Program-made: the position numbers and the translations under genes
In this document: positions 10,454 through 63,445 of the stretch, in pieces
How positions within the stretch are numbered: the first letter of the stretch is position 1
Layout: each line of letters begins with the position of its first letter
Notes under the pieces: model-generated
Databases searched by the model: none
Seen by the model: the letters and a program-made list of their open reading frames with translations, nothing else
Told to the model about the DNA's origin: nothing
IMG/VR virus record: IMGVR_UViG_3300034283_001314
Direction: 5' to 3' (one strand)
From: a virus
Taxonomy: Duplodnaviria; Heunggongvirae; Uroviricota; Caudoviricetes
Length of the DNA stretch: 64,000 nucleotides

Positions 10454-10460
10454 AAACAAA

Positions 10461-10487
10461 GGGGGACAGAAATGTTCCCCTTTTTTT
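10461..10487 (+). terminator. rho-independent terminator
   Basis: GGGGGACA-gaaa-TGTTCCCC followed by T7. Confidence 0.65.
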
Positions 10488-11259: not shown

Positions 11260-11679
11260 ATGGGTTACAATAGATTTAGATGGTGGACAAAAGGAAAGAA
11301 AAAGAATCCTTTACCGGAACATTATCCATTATCACAAAAAATTCAGAATGGTGATTATGATTATTCGTATATGTTTGCAGAAGCTAAAGAGATGAGAGAT
11401 ACTGCTCAGAAAGTATATCAACAAACATACGATAACTATGGTGGAACTGATGAAAAGAATAGGATTGAAGTTTCGTTAGAAGCATCTCAAATGAAAAGAA
11501 TAAAAGCAATTAAGTTGGAGTTAGAAGCTAACAAAGATGAGCAGAATATACTTTACAAATTGAGGAGAGATTTAACTAAAACATTCGGTATAGATTTGTG
11601 GAATGAGGCAATGGAAAAAGTAGATGGTGATTTATTAGATTTATATACTTACTATAAAAAGAATGCAGTTAAAGATTAA
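11260..11679 (+). CDS. hypothetical protein
   Basis: ATG ORF. Confidence 0.5.
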   Translation: MGYNRFRWWTKGKKKNPLPEHYPLSQKIQNGDYDYSYMFAEAKEMRDTAQKVYQQTYDNYGGTDEKNRIEVSLEASQMKRIKAIKLELEANKDEQNILYKLRRDLTKTFGIDLWNEAMEKVDGDLLDLYTYYKKNAVKD

Positions 11680-12913
11680 GTTTTCAGAAATAAGAGGTGA
11701 CTTTGGCATTAAGGATTTAGATCTCTACTCAACGGAAAGTAGAGAATCATATATCCGACAAGGTCACATGAAACAATTTATATTTTCAGTTCAGAAATAC
11801 GGAGATATAGAATTTATAGAGGATGAGGAAGTATATTGTTTATTTTATACTGAATCAATTTCATCTGCAATACCTCACTTTATCAATTTAGATAAGAGTA
11901 AGGATATATTACATAAACTTAGGACCGGTGTTATAAAGAAGTTCATATTCTATGGTGAGGATATGGACTTTCTTACTGTCGCTGGTCCTGTGCCAGGATT
12001 AGTTCAACAATTAAACCATTTCTTTGGTGAGCATATTGATAAGGTTTGGATTAGTATAGCTAGTAAAAACTGGTCGCATGATTGGGGTAATATTAATGTG
12101 GTATATAACTTAGGATGTTTACCTTACTTTATTGAGAACAATATTGAAAAGATAGAGGAGGAAAATATCATAGTAGATAGTTCTAAAGCAGAAAAGCATT
12201 TTTATACAACCAACAATCAACCGAGAGAAGCTAGGATGCATTTGTATAAGCACTTATTGGATAATAGGATGATGAGTAAGTGTGAAGCAAGTTTCTTTTT
12301 TAGATATTGGGATGATGGAAAGAAGTATATTACATATAGTGACAGAGAAAGAGATGGTGCAAAGAAATTACTACCAGATATAGATGATGAATTTCAGTTT
12401 CCTGTTAGAGTATTTGAGAATGAATTAGAGGGTGGACACTATTATAATTGTAAGTGGGTAAACTTTGAAAAGAACAATAATGCATTGATAGATGTTGTAA
12501 TAGAAACCTTAAGTGATGGTGTTGATTTTTGTTCACTTACCGAAAAGACATTTAGACCTATTATATGTAAGAAACCATTTTTAGTATTTGGTTCAGCCGG
12601 TCTATATAGAGGATTAGAGGAAATGGGATTCAAACTATTTCCAGGATTATATGATGCTGATATATTAGATGATACTACTGAATTTAACGAGATAATGGAT
12701 GAGTTACGACATGAGGATAATGCAAAGGTAGTTTTCTATGAGAGGAGATTTAATAAGTTTCTAAAGATATTAGATAGATTAGCAGAAATGGATATAGAAC
12801 AATTAAGAGAATTAGTAGATGAAACTTGGTTTAATTGTGAGTATAATTATAACGTCTTATTACACATAATTAAAAAAGAAAAAGAGGATACTATTAAGTT
12901 GTTTTCATTATGA
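11663..12913 (+). CDS. putative glycosyltransferase, fucosyltransferase-like (GT10-type motif)
   Basis: C-terminal 'VVIETLSD...SLTEKTFRPIICKKPFLVFG...FKLFPG' parallels the GT10 'FxFENS...YxTEK...IPIYWG' motif. Four paralogs exist in the window. Confidence 0.45.
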   Translation: MQLKIKFSEIRGDFGIKDLDLYSTESRESYIRQGHMKQFIFSVQKYGDIEFIEDEEVYCLFYTESISSAIPHFINLDKSKDILHKLRTGVIKKFIFYGEDMDFLTVAGPVPGLVQQLNHFFGEHIDKVWISIASKNWSHDWGNINVVYNLGCLPYFIENNIEKIEEENIIVDSSKAEKHFYTTNNQPREARMHLYKHLLDNRMMSKCEASFFFRYWDDGKKYITYSDRERDGAKKLLPDIDDEFQFPVRVFENELEGGHYYNCKWVNFEKNNNALIDVVIETLSDGVDFCSLTEKTFRPIICKKPFLVFGSAGLYRGLEEMGFKLFPGLYDADILDDTTEFNEIMDELRHEDNAKVVFYERRFNKFLKILDRLAEMDIEQLRELVDETWFNCEYNYNVLLHIIKKEKEDTIKLFSL

Positions 12914-14016
12914 TTGTAAGATGTTTTAAATATGAACCAAATAGTGAATTAGTTTTCAATGAACAACCACAGTTAGATAATTACCATATTAAACTAAAAC
13001 AGGATGAAGATGTCTTAGTAATTCACATAATGGATAATTCGCCAAATCCAAACATTAATCTAATTGAGGAATTTATTAGAAAAATAAACATCAACAAAGT
13101 AGTAATAGATTTTACATCAGTTGAGTGTTATGTTCAAAAAAGTGTAGTAGAAGAATTAGAAAAGAGATTAGCTCGTTTCACACTTAGAATATTGACAGTT
13201 AATATTGTTAATAACGAATACAAATCACATATCTTTTTTCCTACACATGCATTTCAATTATTACATAAATTTGATGAATTAATTGATCCTATATTTGAAA
13301 TACAAACAAAGGTTTTAGCTACAAAGAAACGATTAAAGAAGTATCTATTTTTAAATCACCATCTTAGAACGGAGAGGTTTAAGATATTTGAATCATTATA
13401 TAAAAACAATAACCTAAATGATGGTTTGGTTAGTTTTAATTGGACGTTAGAACATAACGAATTTGTAGCATCACAATATTCGGTATCTATGGATGATTTA
13501 GAATACATCAAAAATTCAGATGCATATTCTATACTACCTATTGAATTGGATGGTAGTAATGAAATAGCACGTACATTTGATAATAATATAACAGGTATAC
13601 AAAATCCTGTCTATTTCTCACCACCTAATACAAACATTACACATTACTTTAATGTATACTTTGAAATAATAACTGAAGGATTTAGTAGTAATACACCATT
13701 TCATCCGTATGTCGATAGAACAAATCTATTGCATTATTCCGAAAAGATTTACAAACCATTATTATTCGGTGTTCCCTTTTGTTTTTGGGGACCGGAAAAT
13801 ACATTAGAGGAATTTAAAAAGTATTTAGGATTTAAGTTTGATTGTCCATTATACTATTCAAATGTTGGATATGATTTAAACCAATTTTGTGATAAAGTAA
13901 ACGAATTATCTAACTTATCATATAAAGAATTACACACATTGTATTATCAGTATATTGATGATATTAAACATAACCAACAAACATTAATAAACTATTTAAA
14001 AAACATAACAATATGA
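12910..14016 (+). CDS. putative glycosyltransferase, fucosyltransferase-like (GT10-type motif)
   Basis: 'YFEIITEG...HYSEKIYKPLLFGVPFCFWG' matches the FEN(S)/TEK/IPIYWG-like pattern. Confidence 0.45.
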   Translation: MIVRCFKYEPNSELVFNEQPQLDNYHIKLKQDEDVLVIHIMDNSPNPNINLIEEFIRKININKVVIDFTSVECYVQKSVVEELEKRLARFTLRILTVNIVNNEYKSHIFFPTHAFQLLHKFDELIDPIFEIQTKVLATKKRLKKYLFLNHHLRTERFKIFESLYKNNNLNDGLVSFNWTLEHNEFVASQYSVSMDDLEYIKNSDAYSILPIELDGSNEIARTFDNNITGIQNPVYFSPPNTNITHYFNVYFEIITEGFSSNTPFHPYVDRTNLLHYSEKIYKPLLFGVPFCFWGPENTLEEFKKYLGFKFDCPLYYSNVGYDLNQFCDKVNELSNLSYKELHTLYYQYIDDIKHNQQTLINYLKNITI

Positions 14017-14417
14017 CAGAAAGAAAGTATTTACCAACCCTAAGTGAATTAATTGATAGATTAAGTATCGTTCAATTAAAAGAAGTATTTATTGCAGAAC
14101 ATAAAGCAGAATACGGACAGGAAATTAAAGATATAGTAAATGATATTCAAATTTTATTAGATGAGAATAAAAGTGTAGTGACCGCAGAAACTATTAGAGC
14201 AATTGTAGTATTATCACAAATGAACTTACATATTTGGCACAACGAATCAAACTATCGTAAGGGAATTAGAGATGGCAACAATTTAGAATTAACACATGGT
14301 ATCAACGGAATTAGAAATACTGCAAAGAATAAGATACAAGAAGTTAATGGTGGTAGAAAAGATTACAAGATAGATTGTTTAGCAGCAGAATTTAAGGATT
14401 GGGAGATTTCTTGGTAA
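14013..14417 (+). CDS. hypothetical protein
   Basis: ATG ORF overlapping the upstream stop. Confidence 0.5.
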   Translation: MTERKYLPTLSELIDRLSIVQLKEVFIAEHKAEYGQEIKDIVNDIQILLDENKSVVTAETIRAIVVLSQMNLHIWHNESNYRKGIRDGNNLELTHGINGIRNTAKNKIQEVNGGRKDYKIDCLAAEFKDWEISW

Positions 14418-14694: not shown

Positions 14695-15540
14695 ATGAAT
14701 ACAATGAAATTTACAACAATCGGTAATGCTAAAAAGGTAACGGGTTTATCTTATTTAGGTAGTGTAGCAAGTAGTTCAAAAATTGCTAAAGGTTTAAAGT
14801 ACAATGAAATGACTTACATTTTGTATCTTGCTCCTGCTGAACAAAGTGGTTACAATGTTTGTCCTGGTTCAACGGCTGAATGCAGAGAAGCTTGTTTAAC
14901 TGAAAGTGGACACAATAGAATTGATGTTAAGAAAAATGCAATCAACAAAGCTCGTATCAAAAAAACTAAATTGTTCTTTGAGCATAGAGAGTTCTTTATG
15001 GGTTGGTTAGTAACTGAAATTAATAAAGCTAGAAACGATGCCTTTGCTAAAGGATATACATTTTCAGTTCGTTTAAATGGGACATCGGATATTCAACCAA
15101 CATTATTTAAATTCAATGGTAAGGTGATTTTTGATGTATTTAACGAAGTGACATTTTATGATTATACTAAGGTTGCTAATCGTTTTAAGTTATTAAATAA
15201 GTATTCTAACTATGATTTAACTTATTCTTTTAGTGGTTACAATATGTTACAATCATTGGAGTTATTAGAAAATAATAAAGGTAGAGTTGCAATGGTATTT
15301 GAAGGTAAACAATTACCCAAATCATTTATGGGTTACAAAGTAATTGATGGTGATGAATACGATATGAGACACTTAGATGAGACGGGTGTAATTGTAGGAT
15401 TGAAGTTTAAGTTTGTTAGAACAAAGATTGATACTGCACATAACAAATTCATTATCCCTATGGATAGCAAGTTTAGTGTGTATGATGTAAACCCTTTGAT
15501 AACAAAAGCTGCTCAAAATAAATTGGCATTAGCTAAGTAA
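14695..15540 (+). CDS. hypothetical protein
   Basis: ATG ORF, first gene after the promoter. It contains a 'CPGSTAECREAC' Cys cluster. Confidence 0.55.
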   Translation: MNTMKFTTIGNAKKVTGLSYLGSVASSSKIAKGLKYNEMTYILYLAPAEQSGYNVCPGSTAECREACLTESGHNRIDVKKNAINKARIKKTKLFFEHREFFMGWLVTEINKARNDAFAKGYTFSVRLNGTSDIQPTLFKFNGKVIFDVFNEVTFYDYTKVANRFKLLNKYSNYDLTYSFSGYNMLQSLELLENNKGRVAMVFEGKQLPKSFMGYKVIDGDEYDMRHLDETGVIVGLKFKFVRTKIDTAHNKFIIPMDSKFSVYDVNPLITKAAQNKLALAK

Positions 15541-25041: not shown

Positions 25042-26316
25042 ATGAAAAAAATTATATTAGGATTAATCGTAGTGACATTATTCGGATGTGAAAAAGTAGC
25101 ACCTGGAACATATATGTTTCCTAGAAATAAAAAAGAAGATGTAGTTACACAACCAATTCTACCTACAAATACTCAAATTGAAAAATTACCGAAAGGTTAT
25201 TATTTTGGTAAATCATCATACGAATTGAGAGTTGCACAAACCTATATTAATATAGATTCACTTAGAACTATATTTGGTATTAGAACTATTGGTGAATTTA
25301 AGGGTAATAATAATTTAGGATTCGTTTATGTTGATATGAACAACGATGGATTTGAAGATATATTTTATCCATATAGTACAGGTAGTGAAGTTAATTTAAA
25401 ACCAGAGGTTTTTATTTATTATGGTAACACATATATTAGAGATAATAGTATGTTACCAAATGATTATGTAGGAAATCAAAATACCAGAAAAACAATAGTG
25501 GGTGATTATAACAATGATAGTTTACCTGATTTGTTTTTAATTAATTCAGGATATGAAAATGTAAATACTCAACATTTTGCATTAGAAAAAAATACATTGT
25601 TATTAAGTGATAGAATTACAGGAAAATATAAGTTAGGTGATTTATCAATGTTAGGTAGAGATTTTTGGCATGGTGGTGCATCTGGCGATTTAAATGGTGA
25701 TGGTAATATTGATATTGTAATAAGTTCAGGTAAACCTGTATTATTATTAGGAAATGGAAAAGGGGGATTTACAAAGCAAAATATAGATTTTAAAAATGAT
25801 AATTTAGGTGCCTATATTACTATTGAAATAATGGATGTAGATAAAAACGGAACAAATGATATTATAATGACCGGTGATGAAGGACAGAGAAATAATAATT
25901 CAATAGCAAAATCTACTATATTATTTAATAACAATTTATCATTTCAAAAAGTAGATATAACTGAACCAAATATATTAGGATGGAAATTGGTTATGGATAT
26001 TGGATGTGAAGATATTGATAATGATGGTATTAAAGAAATATTTTTATGCAGAACGAGAGATAATACATCCGTTTGGTCTAATGGTTATTTAATTAACATT
26101 TATAAAAAAGTGGGAAATGGATATGAAGATGTTAGTGATAAATTTATAAAAAATAATAGATTTGTTGCAGGAGATAGAAACTATGCTGGATTTTGGATAT
26201 ATCAAATGACTCTTAAAAAAGAAAAAGATGGATTATATTCAATTAATGCATATGTTAGTGATAAAAGTACAGTCCAATATTGGAAACAAAATAGTATAAC
26301 AAAACAATTTGAATAA
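25042..26316 (+). CDS. lipoprotein with FG-GAP/VCBS-like calcium-binding repeats
   Basis: Signal peptide 'LGLIVVTLFGC'. Repeats follow: DMNNDGFEDIF, DLNGDGNIDIV, DVDKNGTNDII and DIDNDGIKEIF. Confidence 0.55.
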   Translation: MKKIILGLIVVTLFGCEKVAPGTYMFPRNKKEDVVTQPILPTNTQIEKLPKGYYFGKSSYELRVAQTYINIDSLRTIFGIRTIGEFKGNNNLGFVYVDMNNDGFEDIFYPYSTGSEVNLKPEVFIYYGNTYIRDNSMLPNDYVGNQNTRKTIVGDYNNDSLPDLFLINSGYENVNTQHFALEKNTLLLSDRITGKYKLGDLSMLGRDFWHGGASGDLNGDGNIDIVISSGKPVLLLGNGKGGFTKQNIDFKNDNLGAYITIEIMDVDKNGTNDIIMTGDEGQRNNNSIAKSTILFNNNLSFQKVDITEPNILGWKLVMDIGCEDIDNDGIKEIFLCRTRDNTSVWSNGYLINIYKKVGNGYEDVSDKFIKNNRFVAGDRNYAGFWIYQMTLKKEKDGLYSINAYVSDKSTVQYWKQNSITKQFE

Positions 26317-26689: not shown

Positions 26690-27814
26690 ATGAAACTATT
26701 TTATTGTAATGGTTATGGTGATTTGGACTTTAGTAAGTTAGGATTTAACTTATACGATATTAAGTTAAATGATTATGATTACATAAAAGATATTGAATCT
26801 GGTGATGTATTATTTATTAAATTAGATGATATTGATATACTAAATCAATTAGTAAATCCTAAACTCAAAATTACTATATTTTTATTTATCAGTCATGAGT
26901 ATTGTAATGAACATCGTAGGATTGATATAATTAAAAACAAAAATGCTAATCATTCAATATGGTTCTTAACATCACATATAGATTTTTATTCTATTGATAA
27001 TGATATGAGTTTAGAAGCTAAGATGTTTCCATTCAAAGAAGCATTTTCAGATAAAGCATATATCAATTCAATTAATAGAAATAGAAAATACAATTTTTTT
27101 AATCGTTCTATTAATCTACGCAGACTAAAGACATTTGAGATTCTAAAAAAGAAAAATATAGAATTATTAGATTGTTATTTTACATTTGGAAACATTATCA
27201 AACACAATACATTTGGTGATATAGATACAATTAAAGATTTTGTAGAATTTAGAGATAAAAAAAATAAATTGGGGATTGATGCAGATTTTATTTCAAAGTA
27301 TAAGAATGAATTTAAGTTATACGAAAATAGAGAACAGGTTGAATTAGGAATTATACAGGCATCACATTCAAACGATATGTATGATACTATAAATGAACAA
27401 TCATTAGATTCATATGTATCAATGATAATTGAAAGTAGTGGTGATATGGATGATGATTATAGATTGACGGAAAAAACATTAAGAGCTTGGTTATGTAAAA
27501 ACATTTTCTTAACTTTACAATGTAAAGGATTTACCAAATTACTTAAACAAAATGGAATAGAAACATTTGAAGATGTATTTGGTTTAGATGAAAATTGGGA
27601 TGATTGTGAGGAATTAGAAAGAATAAATAAATTCATATCAGCTTTAGAATATATAAATGGATTATCAATAGCTAAAATAGCAAGAATATACAATAAAAAA
27701 GATATAGAAGATAGAATAGATAAAAACTATAATTTTATTATGAATAGTTTTAATGATGATACAATATTAGCTGAGTTAAAAAAGAAAATTGGTTATGAAA
27801 ATAATGTTCATTAG
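26690..27814 (+). CDS. putative glycosyltransferase, fucosyltransferase-like (GT10-type motif)
   Basis: 'MIIESSGD...YRLTEKTLRAWLCKNIFL' matches the motif. It is a close paralog of 47082-48227. Confidence 0.45.
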   Translation: MKLFYCNGYGDLDFSKLGFNLYDIKLNDYDYIKDIESGDVLFIKLDDIDILNQLVNPKLKITIFLFISHEYCNEHRRIDIIKNKNANHSIWFLTSHIDFYSIDNDMSLEAKMFPFKEAFSDKAYINSINRNRKYNFFNRSINLRRLKTFEILKKKNIELLDCYFTFGNIIKHNTFGDIDTIKDFVEFRDKKNKLGIDADFISKYKNEFKLYENREQVELGIIQASHSNDMYDTINEQSLDSYVSMIIESSGDMDDDYRLTEKTLRAWLCKNIFLTLQCKGFTKLLKQNGIETFEDVFGLDENWDDCEELERINKFISALEYINGLSIAKIARIYNKKDIEDRIDKNYNFIMNSFNDDTILAELKKKIGYENNVH

Positions 27815-28499
27815 TGACACACATGGTAGTCACGAGAAAATTGATAAATTATATGGTCAATTACCATATGTAGACATTATGATTCATAGTGGGGATTGTA
27901 GTAGATATGGTGAGTTTGCAGAAACCGATTTGTTTATGGATTGGTATTCAAAACAAAACGCTAAACATAAAGTATTGATAGCGGGTAATCATGATTTTGT
28001 ATTTCAAAACAAAGAAAGAACAAAACAATTATTAGAATTAAACCCATCAGTTACTTATTTAGAAGATGAGTATATTAATATTGATGGAATTGGTATATAT
28101 GGTTCTCCATGGTCACCTATCTATGGTATGTGGGCATTTATGAAACATAGAAACAATGATATGGATGAAGTGTGGAGGAAAGTTCCAACGGATGGTAGTA
28201 TTGATATTTTAGCAACACATACACCTAGATATGGTAGATTGGATATTAGTGTAAGAGGTAATTATAATGTAGGGTGTGAGATGTTAGCAAATAGAATCAA
28301 CGATATACACCCTAAGGTCCACGTATTTGGACACATACATGAATGTGGTGGAATGATTAAGGAAGAAACCGAAGTACCGGTAAAAGGTATGGTAAGTTTG
28401 AATGCATCCCTATTAGATATTAGATACGAATTAGCTAATCCAATATGGATATGGGACACTGAAACAAATGATTGGAGTTCAATAGAAATAAAAGAATAA
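27795..28499 (+). CDS. calcineurin-like metallophosphoesterase
   Basis: 'SDTHG', 'GDCS', 'GNHDF' and 'GHIHE' match MPP motifs. The ATG at 27795 is used because the track start at 27789 is TTG. Confidence 0.65.
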   Translation: MKIMFISDTHGSHEKIDKLYGQLPYVDIMIHSGDCSRYGEFAETDLFMDWYSKQNAKHKVLIAGNHDFVFQNKERTKQLLELNPSVTYLEDEYINIDGIGIYGSPWSPIYGMWAFMKHRNNDMDEVWRKVPTDGSIDILATHTPRYGRLDISVRGNYNVGCEMLANRINDIHPKVHVFGHIHECGGMIKEETEVPVKGMVSLNASLLDIRYELANPIWIWDTETNDWSSIEIKE

Positions 28500-28641
28500 G
28501 ATATGATAATGAGTTATGTGATAGGAATCGGTTGCAGCTTTATACTGGCTGCAATCGTTTCATTTTTTTGGGTAAGAGGTATTGATAATATGAAAGAAAA
28601 TCATCCTGATTATAAGGGTGAAGATTTTTTAAATTGGAGTG

Positions 28642-29307
28642 ATGATGAAAAATAAACTTTGGGTATTTGGATGTTCGTTATCAACTGGATTTAGAGGTGC
28701 AATAATGCCGTATGATGAAAAAGATACATGGGCAGGTAAATTGGCAAATAAATTAGGGTTAGAATTAGTTAATCAAGCACACGCCGGACAATGTAATTGG
28801 GTATCTATATTACAATTTATAGATAGAAGGGATGAAATCAAAAAAGGTGATATTGTGGTATTTGAATTTACTTTCTTTGATAGATTTAACATATATCCAA
28901 CAAGAGCACAATGGGGTGATTTAGAACATTTTTTTATTAAACATCAACAATCTTTAGTTGATGCAAATAAAGAATTGAGAGATTTAAATTTTAAATGGTT
29001 TGGTAAACAAGTACATCAATGGTGTAATGATACTGAAATCCCAATTTACCTATGGTCAGTTGAAGGACAGACTCATATTGATTTTAAACGATACTTTGAA
29101 AAATATAGATTTATACCTGCTCCTAACTATACAATAGAATCACCAAACTTTTCATTTTATTATAAATGGCAAGATTTACATCCTGAACAATGGTGTTTAG
29201 AAGATGATAGACATTTTGGTGAATTAGGACATGAGAGAATGGCAAATCATTTATTTGATTGTATTAAAAATGATATACAATATACTTATAAGAAACCTGT
29301 TGTATGA
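28642..29307 (+). CDS. SGNH/GDSL-family hydrolase
   Basis: Block I 'FGCSLS'. C-terminal 'DDRHFGELGHERMA' fits a DxxH block V. The ATG at 28642 is used because the track start is GTG. Confidence 0.5.
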   Translation: MMKNKLWVFGCSLSTGFRGAIMPYDEKDTWAGKLANKLGLELVNQAHAGQCNWVSILQFIDRRDEIKKGDIVVFEFTFFDRFNIYPTRAQWGDLEHFFIKHQQSLVDANKELRDLNFKWFGKQVHQWCNDTEIPIYLWSVEGQTHIDFKRYFEKYRFIPAPNYTIESPNFSFYYKWQDLHPEQWCLEDDRHFGELGHERMANHLFDCIKNDIQYTYKKPVV

Positions 29308-30035
29308 AAGTTTTAGTTATAGGAGATAGTTGTACGGATGTATTTGTATATGGCTATTGTAAACGATTATGTCCCGAAGGACCTATACCAATATTTGAAC
29401 CGAGTAGAACAATTACAAATATGGGGATGGCGGGTAATGTAGTTGCTAATCTTAAATCATTGGGTGCAGAGAAAGTTGAATTGGTTACTAACAAAGAACA
29501 AATAACAAAGACAAGATATGTTGAGGAAAAGGCAAATCATCTAATTATTAGAATTGATAGTAATGATAAGGTTAGTAATTCATTTGATATTAAAAGAGTT
29601 CCATTTGGTGATTATGATGCAGTAATTGTAAGTGATTACGATAAGGGATATTTAACATATGATGATTTAGAAAAAATATCAGAATCACATCCACTTACTT
29701 TTATTGATACCAAAAAACCAATAAACGATAAAATGAAAGGATACTCATTCATTAAGATAAATGAGTGGGAATGGGAACAATGTAAAGATGCAAATTACGA
29801 AGATTGGAATGATAAATTAATAGTTACAATGAGTGAAAGAGGTGCAATGTATAATGGTATAACGTATCCTGTAAACAATGATATTGAAGTAAGAGATTTA
29901 AGTGGTGCAGGTGATACATTTATGGCAAGTTTAGTAATTAGTTATTTAAAAACAACAAGTATAGAACGTAGTATTCAGTTTGCAAATGATTGTGCAACAA
30001 AAGTAGTTCAAAAAAGAGGAGTAGTTACACTATGA
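29304..30035 (+). CDS. PfkB-family carbohydrate kinase (HldE/RfaE domain-I-like)
   Basis: 'MKVLVIGD...PEGPIPI' resembles the HldE N-terminus. 'LSGAGDTF' is the ribokinase-family signature. Confidence 0.55.
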   Translation: MKVLVIGDSCTDVFVYGYCKRLCPEGPIPIFEPSRTITNMGMAGNVVANLKSLGAEKVELVTNKEQITKTRYVEEKANHLIIRIDSNDKVSNSFDIKRVPFGDYDAVIVSDYDKGYLTYDDLEKISESHPLTFIDTKKPINDKMKGYSFIKINEWEWEQCKDANYEDWNDKLIVTMSERGAMYNGITYPVNNDIEVRDLSGAGDTFMASLVISYLKTTSIERSIQFANDCATKVVQKRGVVTL

Positions 30036-43601: not shown

Positions 43602-44777
43602 ATGAAGAAAATAAATCTTTATCAAGATAGTAAAGAGTGCCTGTTTTGGACTCGTAGTGAATTTGAAGAATTAGAAAAGAAGTATCCTAAGAAATTTGAA
43701 TTAGATAAAGAACAACCATTTGTGTTTGAACATGGTGGGTATGAGTTTAGACAATATATTCGTAACACATTTATTAGGGAAGATACTGGGTTAGACCCAA
43801 CGATAGAACTGGGTGATATTAATATATTTGTACTGACGGGTACTTTCCCACTATATAAAGTGATGAACTTACTAAATGAGTTTGAAAAAAATCCAGAAAA
43901 AAAATTCATCCTTATAGATAAACATCCTGAAGATTATTGGTTATGTATAGAAGCTATGAATAGTAATGAGTTATACGAAAGGATAGCTGGTATGAATAAT
44001 GTGAGTGTGTTTTGGGATAATTTGGCTAAGTTTAACAATTTCCATTTCCTACCTAAGATGATGATGCATAGTTATCATAATGTACATCAGTTCAATGGTT
44101 TCTTTTTCTTTAATGGATATGAAATCTTTAAACACCATCCAAAGGACAAGAGGATTGGAATCCATATAAACAAACATATGATTGATAAGATTAGGTATTA
44201 TCTATATACTAACTTTAAACATAATACACATAATAAGTTATTCTTTACTAACAGGAAGGAATATAAACACAGCGTATTTGAATTAAACTTTATCGATTCT
44301 AATAATGCTGGTACTGAAAGAGAATGGTTCAATTTACAATTCTTAGACCAAACATTGAAATCAGATATAGAAATAGTATACGAAACCTTTTCCATACAAG
44401 CCCGTAGAGATACATCCCTTAAGTGGAATGAAAAGAGTATTAAACACCTTTTCTTAGGTAAACCATTTATACATAGTGACCCAACGGCACATTCCCTATT
44501 TAAAGTATATGGATTAGAACCGTATAGAAGTTTGTATACGGATGAGTTATGGGAACTATACTCTAATTGGGATATGAGGGATTTTTTAGTATTGAAAGAT
44601 GGGTGGGATAGTTATCTACCTCTATTACAACGAAATATAGAGTGGTTGTTAGATATGGAGGATAGTGAGTGGAAAGAAAGGTTAGAGCTTGCCAATACCC
44701 TTGCTATGAAGAACAAAGAGGTAGTAAACAATTTAGTGTATAATCATTCTCTATTACCTTACTTAGATATTTATTGA
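43602..44777 (+). CDS. putative glycosyltransferase, fucosyltransferase-like (GT10-type motif)
   Basis: 'IVYETFS...KWNEKSIKHLFLGKPFI...FKVYGLEP'. Confidence 0.4.
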   Translation: MKKINLYQDSKECLFWTRSEFEELEKKYPKKFELDKEQPFVFEHGGYEFRQYIRNTFIREDTGLDPTIELGDINIFVLTGTFPLYKVMNLLNEFEKNPEKKFILIDKHPEDYWLCIEAMNSNELYERIAGMNNVSVFWDNLAKFNNFHFLPKMMMHSYHNVHQFNGFFFFNGYEIFKHHPKDKRIGIHINKHMIDKIRYYLYTNFKHNTHNKLFFTNRKEYKHSVFELNFIDSNNAGTEREWFNLQFLDQTLKSDIEIVYETFSIQARRDTSLKWNEKSIKHLFLGKPFIHSDPTAHSLFKVYGLEPYRSLYTDELWELYSNWDMRDFLVLKDGWDSYLPLLQRNIEWLLDMEDSEWKERLELANTLAMKNKEVVNNLVYNHSLLPYLDIY

Positions 44778-47081: not shown

Positions 47082-48227
47082 TTGAATAAGATATTTGTAC
47101 AATCATCGGATACTTTAGATTTTACTCTATTGGGTGAATACTTTGATATTATTCCTTGCTACGAATATACTAACCCATATACACCCTTTATTGAGTTTGG
47201 TATAGATAATGGTGATGTTCTATTTCTGCACCAAGCATCCATAGAATCTGTCTATCCTTACATACCTAAAGATAAAGTGATAACTATCTATTGTTTTGAG
47301 TTTCATGAGATAATCTATCCCCACGTTAAAGAAAGGTTTAAAGAGTTATATTCCGATACACTAGCCCAATTATTTTTTATATCTACCGATTTGGAGATGG
47401 GTAAGTATGATTTAGGGTTTAAGTATACACTACCTGCATTTAGAAACTTGTTTAACATTCAACCTACACATAATACCGAAAGAAGTGTTAAGTATACCTT
47501 ATTTAACCAAAGTGTAAATTTTCGTAGGTTAAAGGTATTTGAATTACTTAAACGGTCTAACTTTGTAAAATCAATAGATTCAGCGGTTTCATTTGGTATG
47601 GTGTATATGAGTGTTCAGTTTGATGAAGTAAAGGGAATTAGAGATTACCTTGCAGCAAGAATAGATCAATTGAAATTTAAGGTTAAAGGAGTTGATATTG
47701 ATATTGATTACATAGAATCGTTTTCAAATGAATTTAACTTATTTGGATTTAATAGAGATACCATAAAAGAAGATATACAACATGGTGAACCAATTTATCT
47801 ACAATTAGATTCAGTAAATAAAATATCAAATGATTCATACATATCTTTTATTATTGAGAGTTGTGATGGTTCGTTTATAGATACGAGAATTACCGAAAAA
47901 ACTTTAAGAGCTATTTATTATAAGAATATATTTTTAGTTTTACAAAATGATAATATACACTCTCTTTTAAGAGATATTGGATTTAAAACATTTGAGGATA
48001 TATTTTATCTTAATGATGATTGGGATAAAATAAATGAAAATTATAAAATAGGTACATTTACCAAATGGATAAATTATATAAATGAATTATCAATTGAAAA
48101 GGTAAACGAACTTTATAATAGAGAGGATGTTCAACAAAGATTAGAACACAATTATAATTTATTATGTGAATTATTTAAAACACATAATTTAACAAATAAA
48201 ATAATATTAACAAATAAAACAAAATAA
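47082..48227 (+). CDS. putative glycosyltransferase, fucosyltransferase-like (GT10-type motif); apparent TTG start
   Basis: 'FIIESCDGSFIDTRITEKTLRAIYYKNIFL'. It is a paralog of 26690-27814, with conserved N-termini that force the TTG start at 47082. Confidence 0.45.
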   Translation: MNKIFVQSSDTLDFTLLGEYFDIIPCYEYTNPYTPFIEFGIDNGDVLFLHQASIESVYPYIPKDKVITIYCFEFHEIIYPHVKERFKELYSDTLAQLFFISTDLEMGKYDLGFKYTLPAFRNLFNIQPTHNTERSVKYTLFNQSVNFRRLKVFELLKRSNFVKSIDSAVSFGMVYMSVQFDEVKGIRDYLAARIDQLKFKVKGVDIDIDYIESFSNEFNLFGFNRDTIKEDIQHGEPIYLQLDSVNKISNDSYISFIIESCDGSFIDTRITEKTLRAIYYKNIFLVLQNDNIHSLLRDIGFKTFEDIFYLNDDWDKINENYKIGTFTKWINYINELSIEKVNELYNREDVQQRLEHNYNLLCELFKTHNLTNKIILTNKTK

Positions 48228-51833: not shown

Positions 51834-52658
51834 ATGAAACTATTTACCTTTGGTGATAGTTGGACGGAAGGTGTGGGTGGAAATCTAACCGAAGAATATG
51901 TTACGGATATACCAGAAGAAAGAACAATAATACGACAAAAATATTGTTGGCCAAAACACTTATCAGAGTTATTGAAGTGTGAAGTGCAAAATTATGGAGT
52001 GGGTGCTTTTTCAAATAATACAATATTTAATTCAATCTGTCACCAATTAAAAAATGAAATCATCACTAAAGATGATTTTGTTGTTATTATGTGGAGTTCA
52101 TCTTTGAGAGACAATTTACCATTTTTCCCAAACGAAGATTCTTTTCATATCTGGGGGGAGCGATATAAAAGTAAACAACATCTAATTAAATATATTTTTG
52201 ATGGTATTACTAGTAATAATATAAACTATAATAGAGCAGAAAAAGATTTTAGAGAATATTATATAACTAATTTGTTTAGTGATTCCTACTATAATATTAT
52301 AAATCAAAACTATATATTACATTTACAATTTATATTTAAACAAATGGGAATACAATATCTTTTTTGTGATGCATTTGATAATATGATTGGTAAAACTGTA
52401 ATTAGTGAAATTGATAATAGTAATTTAATTGATAATAGTAGATATTGGGGATTCAAAGAAAAAACATTTGCAGACTTTTTGATTGATTTAAAAAGGAGAG
52501 ATGTTTGGGAAGATAATAATTATTGGAGTCAATCGACATCTGGTAAACACCCAAGTAATAATGGATATCAGTTAATTGCGGAAGAATTATATAAATTTAT
52601 ATTAAATTCAAATTTACTGAAAAACGTTATGTGTAAAGATAAAAATTATTTAATATGA
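51834..52658 (+). CDS. SGNH/GDSL-family hydrolase
   Basis: 'LFTFGDSWTEGVGG' (GDSxxxG block I) and 'GKHPSNNGYQLIA' (block V). Confidence 0.55.
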   Translation: MKLFTFGDSWTEGVGGNLTEEYVTDIPEERTIIRQKYCWPKHLSELLKCEVQNYGVGAFSNNTIFNSICHQLKNEIITKDDFVVIMWSSSLRDNLPFFPNEDSFHIWGERYKSKQHLIKYIFDGITSNNINYNRAEKDFREYYITNLFSDSYYNIINQNYILHLQFIFKQMGIQYLFCDAFDNMIGKTVISEIDNSNLIDNSRYWGFKEKTFADFLIDLKRRDVWEDNNYWSQSTSGKHPSNNGYQLIAEELYKFILNSNLLKNVMCKDKNYLI

Positions 52659-53203
52659 TGGAATTTTCTATAAACAATTTTTTTTCAAAAGAAGAATGTA
52701 AATCTATTATAGAAATTGCCGATGCCATTGGTGTTAAATTTTCATATAATCCAAATGAAGTATGGGATTGTAAACGAATTTATGATGACAAATTCAAAGA
52801 AAATATTTTAAATAAACTAAAAACGAATTACCAAAATAATAATTTTAAATTGTGGTTTGATTTGAATGAATTTAAAATAAATGATGTTAATATTAGTTTG
52901 ACCAAATATTATGATAATAGATGGTTAGATTTACATTTAGATAGGATGTCTCAATTAACAACAGTTATAGTCCTTTCCGATGAATTTGATGACGGTAGAT
53001 TTGTATTATCTCCCAATAATGGTGATATTAATACAGCCGAAAAATATAATTTGCAAATTGGAGATGGTATTTCGTTTGATGGTAGTAAAGTATATCATGG
53101 TGTATTACCTGTTCATACAGGTATAAGATATGCTTTAAATATATGGATGACAAATACCGATTTTGAATATAAACCTTTAAAAATCAATAAAAGCATAATA
53201 TAA
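52655..53203 (+). CDS. 2OG-Fe(II) oxygenase (P4H-like small form)
   Basis: 'LHLDRM' (HxD), 'KVYHGV' (distal His) and 'GIRYALNIW' (Arg). Confidence 0.55.
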   Translation: MMEFSINNFFSKEECKSIIEIADAIGVKFSYNPNEVWDCKRIYDDKFKENILNKLKTNYQNNNFKLWFDLNEFKINDVNISLTKYYDNRWLDLHLDRMSQLTTVIVLSDEFDDGRFVLSPNNGDINTAEKYNLQIGDGISFDGSKVYHGVLPVHTGIRYALNIWMTNTDFEYKPLKINKSII

Positions 53204-53212
53204 AATATCACA

Positions 53213-53836
53213 ATGAAACCAAACATTTATATATGTGGAGATAGTTTTGTAGATTGGGATTTACCCGAAGTACATTGGACAGATTATTTATCTAATCATT
53301 ATAATGTTATTAAATTAGGAAAGTTTGGTTCGGATAATCATTCTATAATTTATCAAACGGGAAATATTCCAAACTATATAGATGGTGATAGACTTATAAT
53401 TGTATTTACGGCACCTGGTAGATTTCCAAGAAGATATTTTGGTGAACGTGATATAAATCATAATATAAAATATTTAAATTGGGAATGGTATAAAGATAAA
53501 TCTTTTGCAAAAAAACTATTAGATTTAAGAATATCAGAAACACAAAATTGGTTAGATGGAAATAGAGATAATGAAATATTATTTATTAAAAAATTAAAAT
53601 ATTTTTATGAAAATTATGAACCAATATTTGTAACATGGAATGATGATTTTTATGAAAAAACAAAAGAGTTTGTAGAATTAATAAAAGTAACTTCTATATC
53701 AGATGAAGGTGGTGACCCGATAGATTGGCATCCTGGACGGGTTGGGTGTTATGATTTTTATCTTAAACTACATAAATTTCTAAACATAGAAGAATCAATT
53801 ATAGAATTTGAAAATAAAAAAAATAAACTTATATGA
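53213..53836 (+). CDS. SGNH/GDSL-family hydrolase
   Basis: 'IYICGDSFVDW' (GDS) and 'IDWHPGRVG' (DxHP). Confidence 0.5.
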   Translation: MKPNIYICGDSFVDWDLPEVHWTDYLSNHYNVIKLGKFGSDNHSIIYQTGNIPNYIDGDRLIIVFTAPGRFPRRYFGERDINHNIKYLNWEWYKDKSFAKKLLDLRISETQNWLDGNRDNEILFIKKLKYFYENYEPIFVTWNDDFYEKTKEFVELIKVTSISDEGGDPIDWHPGRVGCYDFYLKLHKFLNIEESIIEFENKKNKLI

Positions 53837-54351
53837 AATTATCAATAGAAGATTTGATTTTTTTAAAATCCGAATTAAGTGTTACTAGAATAATGAATGA
53901 GGAAGACTTGGCGTATATAAAAGCATCTCACCCTCAATTATATTTTGCAACCCATCTTAAAAAAGATGAAGGGGTCTCTCTTTTTCCAAATAATAGTTGG
54001 GTTTATACTTTGGAAAATAAAAATTTAAATGAATTTATTTGTAATAAATTTGAAGAACCTATTGATAATTTATACATAATACATAGATTAATATATGGTG
54101 AAAATGGTTATGCTAAAAAACATAAAGATAGATTTACAACACATAAAACAATTAGTATTTTATTATCATCCGATTTTACCGGTGGGGAAATGTATATAAA
54201 TGATGAAGATGTGTCATTAACAAATGAAGGAGATTATGTTGTATTTAATGGTGGGAATGAATCACATGAAGTAAAAAAGATAATTAGTGGGGAGCGAGAT
54301 GTATTGATAATATGGTTTTCCAAAAAGAAAGCAAAATTTAGTATTATATGA
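53833..54351 (+). CDS. 2OG-Fe(II) oxygenase (P4H-like small form)
   Basis: 'KHKDRF' (HxD), 'ESHEV' and 'GERDVLIIWF'. Confidence 0.55.
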   Translation: MKLSIEDLIFLKSELSVTRIMNEEDLAYIKASHPQLYFATHLKKDEGVSLFPNNSWVYTLENKNLNEFICNKFEEPIDNLYIIHRLIYGENGYAKKHKDRFTTHKTISILLSSDFTGGEMYINDEDVSLTNEGDYVVFNGGNESHEVKKIISGERDVLIIWFSKKKAKFSII

Positions 54352-55010
54352 GAATTGCAATAGTGTGTAATGGTAGGAGTGGTTCCACATCAACGTTTTA
54401 TTATTTAAAGTGTTGTTTAGCTAGAGAACGTAAAAAATATGATTCTTTCTTTGAACCATTTAATTTTATAAATCCAGATAGAGAGGATACATACAACCAA
54501 CTAAAAACAATTGATGAAATAATAAATAAAAAAAACATATTAATAAAAACATTTATAGATAGTGATAATTACCCATATGAATCTTTTAAAAGTGTAGAAG
54601 ATTATTGGGAATGGTTTTATTCATTTTTTGATAAAATAATAGTATTAGAAAGAAAAAATAAAAGATTACAAGCCGAATCACTGGCCTATCATATTAGAAT
54701 ATCTAAAAATAAAACACCTTTACAAACTTGGCATACACAAAAATATTATGAATTAACAGAGGATGATGAGGATGCTGTAATAAAACTAACACATCATTTA
54801 GAATCAGAATCATTAGTGTTAAAATTTATTTCAGATAAAGGGTATCCACTATTTTATTATGAGGATATATTTGTTAATAAAGATATTGAAACGATAAAAC
54901 GTTTAAACGAATATTGTGAAATAGCATATAGTCAAATATGTATTGATGAGTGGATAAATTCTCCATATAAAAAAGTAAGAATAGAAGAAAAGTCAACTAA
55001 ATTAATATAA
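54348..55010 (+). CDS. sulfotransferase-like P-loop protein
   Basis: N-terminal 'IAIVCNGRSGSTSTFYYL' resembles the RSGST PAPS-binding loop of Sulfotransfer_3/NodH-type enzymes. Confidence 0.35.
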   Translation: MRIAIVCNGRSGSTSTFYYLKCCLARERKKYDSFFEPFNFINPDREDTYNQLKTIDEIINKKNILIKTFIDSDNYPYESFKSVEDYWEWFYSFFDKIIVLERKNKRLQAESLAYHIRISKNKTPLQTWHTQKYYELTEDDEDAVIKLTHHLESESLVLKFISDKGYPLFYYEDIFVNKDIETIKRLNEYCEIAYSQICIDEWINSPYKKVRIEEKSTKLI

Positions 55011-56074
55011 TGATAGATTTAAAACAATATGTTTGTACGGTTCCGTTTGAGGCATTAGAAATACATGAAAATAAAAATTTTATGTGTTGTGCAAGTTGGT
55101 TAAAAAAAGAATTACCCAATGGGGTTCCCATAAAAGAATTATGGAATTCAGATGAAGCAATTGAAATACGAAAATCTGTAATGGATGGTTCTTATCGTTA
55201 TTGTGATAAAACACAATGTCCATTTTTAGCTAGATTAATATCATTAAATAAAAGTATTTCCGGGCCAGTTATCCACATAGATAATTTGAGTGATGAAATG
55301 AAAACAAATTACGATAGACAAACTGGTATAATTCCAAATGGACCTAAAATAATTCAAATGTCATTCGATAGAACTTGTAATTATAAATGTCCATCATGTA
55401 GGGTTAATATGATTGTTGCAAATAGTGATAAAATAAAAAGTGTAAATCTTACAATAGAAGAAATAGAAAATGCATACTCCGATTCAATTGAAACAATTTA
55501 TTGTTCTGGAACAGCTGATCCATTTGCATCTGTTTCATATAGAAATTTTTTAAGAAATTTTAATCCAAAAAAATATCCAAATTTAAAATCAATCCATCTA
55601 CATACAAACGCCAGTTTGTGGAATGAAGAAATGTGGGATAGTATGCCAAATATACATAAATATGTTCACAGTTGTGAAATTAGTATTGATGCTGGTACTC
55701 AATATACTTACGAAAATGTAACAAGGTTGGGAGGCAATTGGGATAATCTGATCTCAAATTTAAATTTTATTTCAACTATAAAATCTTTACATAGTGTTAA
55801 ATGTTCTTTTGTCGCCCAACAATCAAATTATAATGAAATGGAAACATTTTTAAATTTAATATATTCTATATTCAAAAATAAAACTAAAGTCTTTTTTGGT
55901 AGGATAACAAATTGGGGAACATTTAGTGATGGTCAATTTAAATTAATTGATGTTGGTAATGATACACATCCAGAACATAAATTATTTTTAAAACAATTTA
56001 AAAAAGTTGCAACCAATCCATATGTTTTTCATAATATGTATGAATTAATTGATATGAAAAAAACATTACTATAA
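55010..56074 (+). CDS. radical SAM enzyme
   Basis: 'SFDRTCNYKCPSCR' matches the CxxxCxxC motif. The N-terminal region has additional Cys residues. Confidence 0.6.
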   Translation: MIDLKQYVCTVPFEALEIHENKNFMCCASWLKKELPNGVPIKELWNSDEAIEIRKSVMDGSYRYCDKTQCPFLARLISLNKSISGPVIHIDNLSDEMKTNYDRQTGIIPNGPKIIQMSFDRTCNYKCPSCRVNMIVANSDKIKSVNLTIEEIENAYSDSIETIYCSGTADPFASVSYRNFLRNFNPKKYPNLKSIHLHTNASLWNEEMWDSMPNIHKYVHSCEISIDAGTQYTYENVTRLGGNWDNLISNLNFISTIKSLHSVKCSFVAQQSNYNEMETFLNLIYSIFKNKTKVFFGRITNWGTFSDGQFKLIDVGNDTHPEHKLFLKQFKKVATNPYVFHNMYELIDMKKTLL

Positions 56075-57313: not shown

Positions 57314-57613
57314 ATGATAACAATGCCACAAACACCTATTACGGATTACTCATTTAAAAAGTGGGGAGCTATAAAGATAGAAGAAACGGATGAAATTGAA
57401 CCATATTATTATTGGATTTTACCAATACCAATTGATGAGAATATACCCGATAGACCTACCTTAATATCTACTACGAATGATGAGTGGAAGATAATGGAAA
57501 TTAAAAAAGGTCAATATTTGGTAACACTATTTGATACTTTACCAATGTTAGAAACAGAAGAAGAAATTGAACTTTTATATAAAATATTAACTAAAGAAAA
57601 TTTAACGAAATGA
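57314..57613 (+). CDS. hypothetical protein
   Basis: ATG ORF. Confidence 0.5.
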   Translation: MITMPQTPITDYSFKKWGAIKIEETDEIEPYYYWILPIPIDENIPDRPTLISTTNDEWKIMEIKKGQYLVTLFDTLPMLETEEEIELLYKILTKENLTK

Positions 57614-58251
57614 TTTACAACGAAGATTGTTTAGATACACTTAATCGTAACTTAGAATACGATTACATTATAACATCACCACCTGATTTTGATGAGATTG
57701 GTGCAGATACTAAAAACATACAACCCTATATTTCTTTCTTAAAAGAAAGATTTAGTTTATTTAATCCTAAAAATAATGTAGTAACTATATTTGTTTCGGA
57801 TAGAAAGGCAGAAGGAACGGTCATTCAAAAACATAATATTATTTGTAGTATTATGAGTGATAATGGTTGGGTACTTAAATCACAAAAAATATGGGTAAAA
57901 AAGGAAGATACAATTGATATGTTCAGACATGGATATACATTTATTTTAACGTTTGGTAGAAATAATTCAAAACACCCATTATTACCCGATGTATTTAGTG
58001 AAAAATTTGTACCTGCTACACCTGAATATACTTATAATTTTTCACCTAATATTGTAAAACAATTTATTGAAAAATATACAAATAAAAATGAAATTGTGTT
58101 TGACCCGTTTATGGGTAGTGGAACTACGGCAATTGTATGTGTAGAACATAATAGAAAATATGTAGGTAGTGAAATTATTGAGGTAACCTGTAAGATTGCA
58201 GAAAATAGAATAAGTAAAATAAATAACGCAGATAAATTTTTTAAACTATAA
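57610..58251 (+). CDS. SAM-dependent amino-methyltransferase (N6A/N4C beta-class architecture) with atypical motif IV
   Basis: N-terminal 'YNEDCLDTL...DYIITSPPDF' is motif IV-like, reading SPPD instead of (D/N/S)PP(Y/F). C-terminal 'VFDPFMGSGTTAIVC' is motif I. Confidence 0.55.
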   Translation: MIYNEDCLDTLNRNLEYDYIITSPPDFDEIGADTKNIQPYISFLKERFSLFNPKNNVVTIFVSDRKAEGTVIQKHNIICSIMSDNGWVLKSQKIWVKKEDTIDMFRHGYTFILTFGRNNSKHPLLPDVFSEKFVPATPEYTYNFSPNIVKQFIEKYTNKNEIVFDPFMGSGTTAIVCVEHNRKYVGSEIIEVTCKIAENRISKINNADKFFKL

Positions 58252-59475: not shown

Positions 59476-60378
59476 ATGGCAGAATACTCACAAATATTAC
59501 CTCTTAGAACCGATATAAAGGTAGTAGACCAATTTGGATTCTTACCCCTATCAATTAATAGACCTACCAAAGAATCGAAGCTAAAGTGGCACGATGCATA
59601 CCTTAATGATGGTTTAGATGAACAACGTCGTAGTGACACATCCGAATATTTACCTGGTTATACATTCTCCGAATTCCACGCTGGATTGGCAGAACAAGTA
59701 TATAGGTTTTGGAGTATGCAAGGTAGTAAGATAGTTGACCCATTTGCGGGTAGAGTAACAAGAGGATTTGTTGCAACTAAATTAGGTAGAGATTATACTG
59801 GATTCGAAATTTCACCAAAGACATGGGAAAGAACACATAAACATTTTGATGCACATAATGTTCATCCACACATAATTAATAGTGATGGAACTTTAATGGA
59901 GGAAATTTCAGATAAAACCGCAGATTTAGTTTTTACTTGTCCACCTTACTTTAATTTAGAAAAATACGAATCAGTTCCTGGTCAATTAAGTGATGAGAAT
60001 AGATATGAATCATTTATGAGTAAGATTGATGTTTGTATTTCAAATTGTTATAGAGTTCTTAAAAGTGGAGCATTTGCATGTTGGGTTGTAGGTGATTTAA
60101 GGACTGGTGGTGAGTTTCAAAACTTTCATGGTGATGTAATCAATTCGTTTAAGAAGCATGGCTTTAATCAGCACGATATAGTTATACTAGAAAATATCTC
60201 ACCATTTGCAGCATTACAAATTGGAAAAACCGCAGCTAAACGATACACATCAAAAGTACATGAATACCTTTTAGTATTCCGAAAACCAGGTGATTATGAA
60301 ATACCAAAATATTGTTCACCGGATGTAATGGAGCAAGAAAACAAATTAGCAGAATTCTTTAATTATGATAGAAAATAA
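59476..60378 (+). CDS. SAM-dependent methyltransferase (amino-MTase-like) with atypical motifs
   Basis: Motif I-like 'VDPFAGRVTRG' and motif IV-like 'VFTCPPYF' (CPPY). Confidence 0.5.
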   Translation: MAEYSQILPLRTDIKVVDQFGFLPLSINRPTKESKLKWHDAYLNDGLDEQRRSDTSEYLPGYTFSEFHAGLAEQVYRFWSMQGSKIVDPFAGRVTRGFVATKLGRDYTGFEISPKTWERTHKHFDAHNVHPHIINSDGTLMEEISDKTADLVFTCPPYFNLEKYESVPGQLSDENRYESFMSKIDVCISNCYRVLKSGAFACWVVGDLRTGGEFQNFHGDVINSFKKHGFNQHDIVILENISPFAALQIGKTAAKRYTSKVHEYLLVFRKPGDYEIPKYCSPDVMEQENKLAEFFNYDRK

Positions 60379-62542: not shown

Positions 62543-63445
62543 ATGAATTTAGGATATGCTTGTATTAATCTTTCTTTAGGTAAGAAAGTTACAACAAACC
62601 GAACAATGATTAAACGAACCTTTATTGATAAGGGATTAGATTATGTGTCGGATTTGGTATTGCAAAATGTTACAGACTTAGAAAAGATTATAGATTGGAA
62701 TGAGCAGAATAATATTAAGATGTATCGTATGAGTTCCGATATGATGCCTTGGGCTACTGAATATCAATTTAGTGAATTAAAGGATTGGAACGAAATATCT
62801 ATTATCCTTAAAAGATGTGGTGAGAAGGCAACAAAGTATGGACAAAGATTATCATTTCATCCAGGTCCGTTTAATGTATTAGTATCACCAAAAGAAAGTG
62901 TTGTACTTAATACTATTAACGATTTAGAAGTACATGGTAGACTTATGGATGCTATGGGATTATCACAAACACCCTACAATAAGATTAATATTCATTGTAA
63001 TGGTGTATATGGGGATAAACAAAGTGCAATGGATAGATTTATAACTAATTTCGGAAGACTCTCTAAATCGGTGCAAAATAGGCTTACAATAGAGAATGAT
63101 GATAAGGCAAGTATGTATTCCGTAAAAGATTTAATGTATATTCATCAAAAGATAGGTATTCCTATTGTATTTGATTATCATCACCACAAATTTTGTACAG
63201 GTGATTTAACCGAACAACAAGCATTAGAGTTAGCAATGAGTACGTGGCCTGACGATATAACACCAGCAGTTCATTATTCCGAATCTGCAGTTGGTAAAAA
63301 ACCACAAGCACATTCCGATTATATTTCTGAAACAATTAATACTTATGGTAATACCGTAGATATAATGGTAGAAGCTAAGAAAAAAGATTTAACAATTTTA
63401 AAATATAAACAAGAAAATTATGGCATACTCAGAAAAAGTGCTTGA
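62543..63445 (+). CDS. UV-damage endonuclease (UvdE/Uve1 family)
   Basis: The N-terminus 'MNLGYACINLSL' and the roughly 300-aa length fit UvdE TIM-barrel endonucleases. Confidence 0.55.
   Translation: MNLGYACINLSLGKKVTTNRTMIKRTFIDKGLDYVSDLVLQNVTDLEKIIDWNEQNNIKMYRMSSDMMPWATEYQFSELKDWNEISIILKRCGEKATKYGQRLSFHPGPFNVLVSPKESVVLNTINDLEVHGRLMDAMGLSQTPYNKINIHCNGVYGDKQSAMDRFITNFGRLSKSVQNRLTIENDDKASMYSVKDLMYIHQKIGIPIVFDYHHHKFCTGDLTEQQALELAMSTWPDDITPAVHYSESAVGKKPQAHSDYISETINTYGNTVDIMVEAKKKDLTILKYKQENYGILRKSA

Follow-up and report, generated by a model that had tools for sequence, protein, structure and literature searches.

What do five genes spread along one stretch of phage DNA encode, when each carries a C-terminal module reminiscent of fucosyltransferases? 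The stretch, called the window below, comprises 64,000 nucleotides of a tailed phage (Caudoviricetes; IMG/VR record IMGVR_UViG_3300034283_001314), and its open reading frames (ORFs) are named here by their first nucleotide. A sequence-only reading had proposed that o11663, o12910, o26690, o43602 and o47082 are paralogs that parallel the α-1,3-fucosyltransferases of family GT10 and that together they imply the assembly of an oligosaccharide. We find that these genes encode an ordinary type of enzyme within a large family that lacks a curated model, and that the GT10 label captures a resemblance at the level of motifs only. Probably, the five are soluble cytoplasmic glycosyltransferases of the GT-B type that depend on nucleotide sugars, belong to a very large family modeled by neither Pfam nor NCBIfam, and perform different transfer steps on a glycan rather than on DNA.

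The first two of these plus-strand genes, o11663 (11663–12913; 416 residues) and o12910 (12910–14016; 368 residues), are the only adjacent paralogs, and the start of o12910 overlaps the stop codon of o11663 by 4 nt (ATGA). The remaining three, o26690 (26690–27814; 374 residues), o43602 (43602–44777; 391 residues) and o47082 (47082–48227; 381 residues), are spread over 36 kb and lie 12.7, 29.6 and 33.1 kb beyond the pair, amid unrelated genes. Orthologs of o11663, o12910 and o26690 co-occur in related phage genomes. The o26690 subfamily is the most populated, with 94 homologs of 35–99% identity, and o12910 has orthologs among the collected relatives (P0015–P0019).

The shared C-terminal module is borne out by BLASTP, hhalign and a family hidden Markov model (HMM), none of which depends on the motif, and these sequence comparisons confirm that the five ORFs are real paralogs. 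By BLASTP, o26690 and o47082 are 33% identical (E 1e-47), and o11663 matches each of them at E ~1e-5. Subfamily profiles compared with hhalign link o11663 to o26690 (P 1.3e-9), o11663 to o12910 (P 6e-5) and o12910 to o26690 (P 9e-6), and profile comparisons on the shared module reach P values down to 1e-51, with o43602 the weakest member. Before the family was widened, o43602 could not be linked to the others (P ≥ 0.065); the profile of its clade aligns with a family profile built without that clade at P 5.2e-8 over 125 columns. It is the most divergent of the five, and its homology is demonstrable only for the C-terminal module, residues 247–386 (44340–44759). The family HMM matches all five ORFs with E values from 2e-127 to 6e-21 (1.4e-53 for o12910; the value for o43602 includes its own clade) and finds no sixth member among the ORFs of the window. 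The suggestion that o47082 initiates at TTG held up as well. The gene upstream ends at 47080, an in-frame stop occupies 47070–72, and no ATG or GTG precedes the N-terminus conserved with o26690, which leaves TTG as the only start codon in that interval; the 381-residue product is on record, as an exact match, from 17 contigs.

At the center of the module is a motif that pairs an acidic residue at a strand end with a Glu-Lys pair at the start of a helix. In o11663 (12503–12580) it reads ET-x9-LTEK-x9-PF, with E281-T, L-T-E294-K295 and P-F306. The counterparts are EG-x18-YSEK-x9-PF in o12910 (13675–13779; E256-G, YS-E278-K279), where the spacer is nine residues longer, ES-x9-LTEK-x9-IF in o26690 (27431–27508; E248-S, LT-E261-K262, IF273), ET-x12-WNEK-x9-PF in o43602 (44382–44468; E261-T, WN-E277-K278, PF289) and ES-x9-ITEK-x9-IF in o47082 (47856–47933; E259-S, IT-E272-K273, IF284). 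The E..EK core that had been described is thus present in all five, but the proposed spacing of 8–10 residues and the Ser/Thr positions fail in o12910 and o43602, and the trailing glycine occurs in o11663 and o12910 and not in the other three. A second motif, N-x6-R-xx-[FY]-xx-L, spans the strand, loop and helix that open the C-terminal Rossmann domain. It is N184-x6-R191 in o11663 (12212–12235), with equivalents at 13354–13377 in o12910, 27101–27124 in o26690 and 47505–47528 in o47082; the equivalent in o43602 (44169–44195) is tentative, including the position of its arginine. A regular expression for the motif, written post hoc and permissive, matches exactly the five among 323 six-frame ORFs. 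Its failure to match anything in 200 shuffled ORF sets, together with a family HMM that matches only the five in the window, rules out a chance origin of the motif.

A structural model supports the GT-B assignment. The AlphaFold2 model of o11663, with a predicted local distance difference test (pLDDT) score of 87.8, contains two Rossmann-like α/β domains separated by a cleft, as in the GT-B fold. The GT-B type that had been anticipated is therefore supported for o11663, but the model of o43602 does not support it for the N-terminal half of that protein. The best matches to the o11663 model in BFVD are uncharacterized proteins of uncultured tailed phages and of a mimivirus, along with annotated viral glycosyltransferases, and one viral relative is fused to a uridine diphosphate (UDP)-glucose dehydrogenase.

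Conservation across 101 diverse family members is concentrated in one half of the protein. In o11663 numbering, E294, K295, G322 and N395 are invariant, R191 and E281 are conserved in 98% and 97% of sequences, and N184, F306, L318, D337 and R362 in 77–94%; all of these residues lie within the C-terminal domain, the part of a GT-B enzyme to which the donor binds. Conservation is lacking in the N-terminal domains except for one column at the end of a hydrophobic strand, where 58 of 62 non-gap sequences have Glu or Asp (E70 in o26690). We take this column to be the general-base position of H. pylori fucosyltransferase (HpFucT; E95) and of T4 β-glucosyltransferase (BGT; D100).

These features suggest how the enzymes may work. 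Sugar transfer from a nucleotide-sugar donor is predicted from the conserved basic and acidic residues of the donor site, and from the genes for nucleoside diphosphate (NDP)-sugar enzymes that neighbor relatives of the five. The C-terminal Rossmann domain would bind the donor; by analogy with R195, E249 and K250 of HpFucT, R191 and K295 would neutralize its diphosphate without a metal, and the glutamate would hold hydroxyls of the sugar or the ribose. The acidic residue of the N-terminal domain (E70 in o26690) is the likely general base, in which case an inverting transfer is probable. The divergent N-terminal domains may select different acceptors. Because these domains diverge, the five copies probably catalyze separate transfer steps, and the stepwise oligosaccharide assembly foreseen from the sequence is plausible for the same reason, although just two of the genes stand next to each other.

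UDP-GlcNAc 2-epimerase and TagF have GT-B-like folds as well, so that the scaffold could in principle serve another role, such as that of a polyol-phosphate transferase like TagF, of an epimerase or of a binding protein, or some of the copies could be inactive. The lack of a match to any curated glycosyltransferase family and the poorly modeled N-terminal half of o43602 would suit such a role. The set of R, E and E-K residues is kept in all five proteins, however (tentatively for the arginine of o43602), and none looks degenerate at the donor site; we consider a departure from glycosyl transfer most unlikely.

If the five are glycosyltransferases, are they fucosyltransferases? Sequences of GT10 enzymes were taken from the PDB chains that match H. 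pylori FucT (2NZW, 5ZOI, 9S6A, 7YRO and 8D0O), and that of T4 BGT was obtained likewise. When the wide family profile is aligned to GT10 with hhalign, ET..TEK..PF falls exactly on the FEN..TEK..IPIYWG signature (E239-N240..E249-K250 in HpFucT), and the second motif falls onto N189..R195, with an N..R..L alignment also seen in AtFUT11. The P value is 0.007–0.009, and the hhalign probability is only 4.5–5.8%. Scored with the family HMM against 2,000 shuffles per sequence, AtFUT11 is reached by 0 shuffles, FUT9 by 4–5 and HpFucT by 13–27, which puts the empirical P of these three at <0.0005 to 0.007; the fourth GT10 sequence is reached by 156–173. The controls were T4 BGT and eight GT-B enzymes of E. 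coli from families GT4, GT9, GT28 and GT30, for which 73–1111 of the 2,000 shuffles reach the observed score (empirical P 0.04–0.56). The signal is weak but is the strongest for GT10 among the families tested, and as a pattern of sequence it would suit either a distant relationship or a shared solution to donor binding.

The parallel to the GT10 signature is accordingly real as a weak motif-on-motif alignment, whereas an identification of the five as fucosyltransferases is not supported. The Pfam model of GT10 (PF00852, Glyco_transf_10) matches neither the five ORFs (E ≤ 1) nor 75 relatives (E ≤ 10), no other glycosyltransferase model of Pfam does so, and none of the GT10 chains in the PDB is matched by the family profile at E ≤ 10. 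Compared with the GT10 motif F-x-[LV]-x-F-E-N-[ST]-x4-Y-x-T-E-K followed by [IV]P[IV]..G, the family retains E-[ST], [ST]-E-K at a similar spacing and [PI]-F, but the Asn of FEN and the Tyr that precedes TEK are absent. No gene for the synthesis of guanosine diphosphate (GDP)-fucose was found among the window ORFs scanned, and the neighbors of family members elsewhere indicate varied NDP-sugars. Neither membership in GT10 nor fucose specificity is established, and that the five are true, highly diverged GT10 α-1,3/4-fucosyltransferases using GDP-fucose seems unlikely to us. The family shares with GT10 (H. pylori FucT, 2NZW; human FUT9, 8D0O; A. thaliana FUT11, 9S6A) the GT-B fold and the acidic residue ending an N-domain strand, and its two donor-site motifs appear to sit in the same structural places (strand-N-loop-R-helix and strand-E..(T/S)EK-helix..strand); of the families tested, GT10 alone gives a sequence signal that clearly exceeds the shuffles. 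Its spacer lengths differ from those of GT10, and it has a conserved C-terminal extension of its own, GFKTF..DESYD..R..N.

The GT4 model PF00534 (Glycos_transf_1) matches none of the five ORFs or the 75 relatives. Unlike GT4 enzymes such as PimA, PimB' and WlaC/PglH-like proteins, the family lacks the E-x7-E motif (the residue eight positions after E294 is a cysteine in o11663), and the GT4 controls WaaG and WaaB give no signal with the family HMM. The five ORFs have no meaningful match to any Pfam model and no informative match in PHROG; no glycosyltransferase model in NCBIfam matches the 75 distant relatives, and a search of PDB sequences with the family profile returned nothing meaningful.

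The family is, by contrast with this absence from curated models, very large. An exhaustive HMMER profile search of 1.84 billion representative sequences returned 9,167 clusters at E ≤ 1e-3 and 2,234 at E ≤ 1e-10, with members in phages, giant viruses and bacteria. For ten relatives looked up by cluster, the recorded names are uninformative, the only one being "hypothetical protein." Two complete glycosyltransferase units occupy single chains of 700–1000 residues in 59 of 266 family proteins (relatives P0127–P0260), and one relative carries TPR repeats. A separate oddity is the metagenomic protein P0014, a family-B DNA polymerase of 640 residues whose residues 595–639 match the C-terminus of o11663 (372–416) with 56% identity; this tail could have arisen by gene fusion, by an error in gene calling or by chimeric assembly. 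Family loci were sought with a degenerate DNA pattern based on the GF.TF-x4-DESYD stretch, which identified 99 loci among species-representative genomes of bacteria and archaea, of which 98 are confirmed members, and at least 120 IMG/VR contigs, with all 120 of those listed confirmed. The hosts include Rhodospirillales, Caulobacter, Methylobacterium, Bdellovibrio, Acidobacteriota, Bacteroidota, Pelagibacterales and Legionellales, and several viral loci have three to five family copies.

Genes for nucleotide-sugar enzymes and radical-SAM proteins often flank these loci. The family gene of Bdellovibrio sp. HCB2-146 is surrounded by genes for a UDP-glucose dehydrogenase, an NAD-dependent epimerase/dehydratase, a DegT aminotransferase and a polysaccharide lyase, and that of Nitrospirillum has a GT4-type gene nearby. 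Among 148 ORFs that flank viral members in IMG/VR, the counts of the commonest Pfam families are 18 for Radical_SAM, 5 each for SPASM and DUF6071, 4 for NDP-sugar epimerase/dehydratase, 3 each for DegT, dTDP-sugar isomerase and UDP-glucose dehydrogenase, and 2 for carbamoyltransferase. The 148 bacterial neighbors include 8 radical-SAM, 4 DegT, 3 epimerase and 3 UDP-glucose dehydrogenase genes, as well as FkbM methyltransferases and sulfotransferases. Two of these gene types recur in the window, where we tentatively assign, as context only, a DUF6071/GDSL-like gene (51834–52658), a 2-oxoglutarate-Fe(II) oxygenase (53833–54351) and a weak radical-SAM match (55010–56074), which follow one another on the plus strand; DUF6071 and radical SAM (51834–56074) are types found beside family members elsewhere.

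Could the acceptor instead be DNA? Under this alternative, the five would act as T4 BGT does, placing sugars onto hydroxymethylated phage bases and so evading restriction. The paralogs do lie amid genes of DNA metabolism (a ligase, nucleases and two DNA methyltransferases), and phage GT-B enzymes that resemble BGT glycosylate 5-hydroxymethylcytosine where the phage also encodes a C5-methyltransferase and a TET-like oxygenase (10.1101/2023.12.21.572611). A scan of window ORFs, however, found no dCMP or dUMP hydroxymethylase, C5-methyltransferase or TET-like gene among those covered. The proteins show no sequence signal toward BGT, the GT63 enzyme of known structure (1C3J), by hhalign (P 0.58) or by shuffling (P ~0.23), and, judged by eye, BGT has an arginine where the family has its EK pair. 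BGT is a basic, DNA-binding protein (isoelectric point 9.05, net charge +6), whereas all five proteins here are acidic (isoelectric points 5.1–6.0, net charges −9 to −21), a comparison that tests charge only and argues weakly against a DNA acceptor; they also have no transmembrane or hydrophobic segment. Family members are common in bacterial chromosomes, beside genes for polysaccharides and NDP-sugars. Because of this acidity and these bacterial contexts, DNA is a less likely acceptor than a glycan borne on protein, lipid or sugar, and we judge DNA glycosylation decidedly unlikely. For the five as glycan-directed GT-B glycosyltransferases, the substrate would most likely be a protein-bound glycan, a lipid-linked intermediate or a soluble one.

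Several points weigh against that account. A good structural model supports one of the five proteins (o11663), and the model of o43602 is poor, such that a GT-B domain in its N-terminal half is not established. No sequence-profile match to a curated glycosyltransferase family was found for the five ORFs in Pfam or PHROG, for the 75 relatives in Pfam or NCBIfam, or for the family profile among PDB sequences. The neighborhood counts have no baseline, and an enrichment of the neighboring families is therefore not proven. No clear gene for nucleotide-sugar synthesis was found in the window, which has just a PfkB-type kinase fragment near o26690. Finally, charge is only a weak argument where the acceptor is concerned.

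The phage itself is jumbo-phage-like, because a 240-kb JGI contig carries an ortholog of o11663 that is 91% identical, in the same gene order. The window has a G+C content of 25–35%, its credible ORFs are all on the plus strand over the whole 64 kb, its GC skew is positive throughout (1–64000), and it contains no tRNA genes. Its proteins have exact copies on many metagenomic contigs. Among deposited phage genomes (INPHARED), megablast found no DNA match to the 4.6 kb tested, and tblastn found none to o11663, o26690, the family consensus or one viral family member. The nearest relatives of the DNA ligase and AAA protein of the window are those of the uncultured huge phages LR756511 and LR756508, and both proteins are 40–50% identical to those of T4-like phages of Alphaproteobacteria and of a Microcystis phage.

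Around the adjacent pair, overlaps of 17, 4 and 4 nt join the ORFs 11260–11679, 11663–12913, 12910–14016 and 14013–14417, and the block at 11260–14417 looks like one translationally coupled unit. Its last gene, on the plus strand, encodes 134 residues, overlaps the stop codon of o12910 by 4 nt and keeps its position in relatives; it has only sub-threshold Pfam matches and no PDB relatives, and its link to the paralogs is tentative. The small genes on either side of the pair are both without PDB relatives. A scan for promoters and terminators over 10.4–14.8 kb performed no better than on shuffled sequence, except for one terminator-like hairpin at 10458–10483, upstream of the block, in which an 11-bp stem is followed by a T-run just after a 427-residue ORF that ends at 10453. 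At 14695–15540, 277 nt downstream of the block, a Cys-rich phage protein of the GP88 family (PF17338, E 1e-34) is encoded at a position that is conserved in relatives. Near o26690, a protein of 424 residues with five FG-GAP/VCBS-like repeats is encoded just upstream (25042–26316), and directly downstream (27789–30035) are a calcineurin-like metallophosphoesterase, a GDSL-like hydrolase and a 243-residue protein that matches the C-terminal part only of PfkB sugar kinases. Toward the end of the window, the two DNA methyltransferases, of the N6/N4 type, lie 1.2 kb apart (57610–58251 and 59476–60378), followed by a UvdE UV-endonuclease (62543–63445) and a NifU-like Fe-S scaffold protein (63420–63821).

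A bolder reading is that the family is a distant sister of GT10 outside CAZy and Pfam, whose phage members, together with neighboring radical-SAM, SGNH/DUF6071 and NDP-sugar-modifying enzymes, would build an unusual glycan bearing chemical modifications, attached to the virion, to the envelope of the host or to phage DNA. We regard this as doubtful; if true, it would amount to a widespread and undescribed pathway of phage glycosylation. The extent of the family matters in either case. Its roughly 9,000 clusters, drawn from phages, giant viruses and bacteria of many phyla, are unnamed by Pfam, NCBIfam and PHROGs, and for that reason these genes are labeled "hypothetical" in metagenomes. A family profile would make many viral and bacterial glycan loci recognizable; its key marks would be the invariant or nearly invariant residues (R, E, E-K, G and N) and the connection to donor binding of the GT10 type. 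That one jumbo phage has five diverged copies suggests that a glycan is built in several steps, with the virion, the host surface and DNA as candidate targets, and the recurring radical-SAM neighbors suggest unusual sugar chemistry.

In kind, such a gene set is unsurprising, since large phages with many glycosyltransferases have already been described. The cyanomyovirus S-SCSM2R has 13, beside NDP-sugar epimerases, a DegT-like enzyme and a radical-SAM gene (PMC12801897), and the "moraphages" have four core glycosyltransferase orthogroups (PMC12619734). The phage studied here resembles both in having several glycosyltransferase genes in one large genome. Unlike the enzymes of S-SCSM2R and the moraphages, however, which fall into known CAZy families (GT1, 2, 10, 11, 24 and 25), all five of the proteins described here come from a single unmodeled family.

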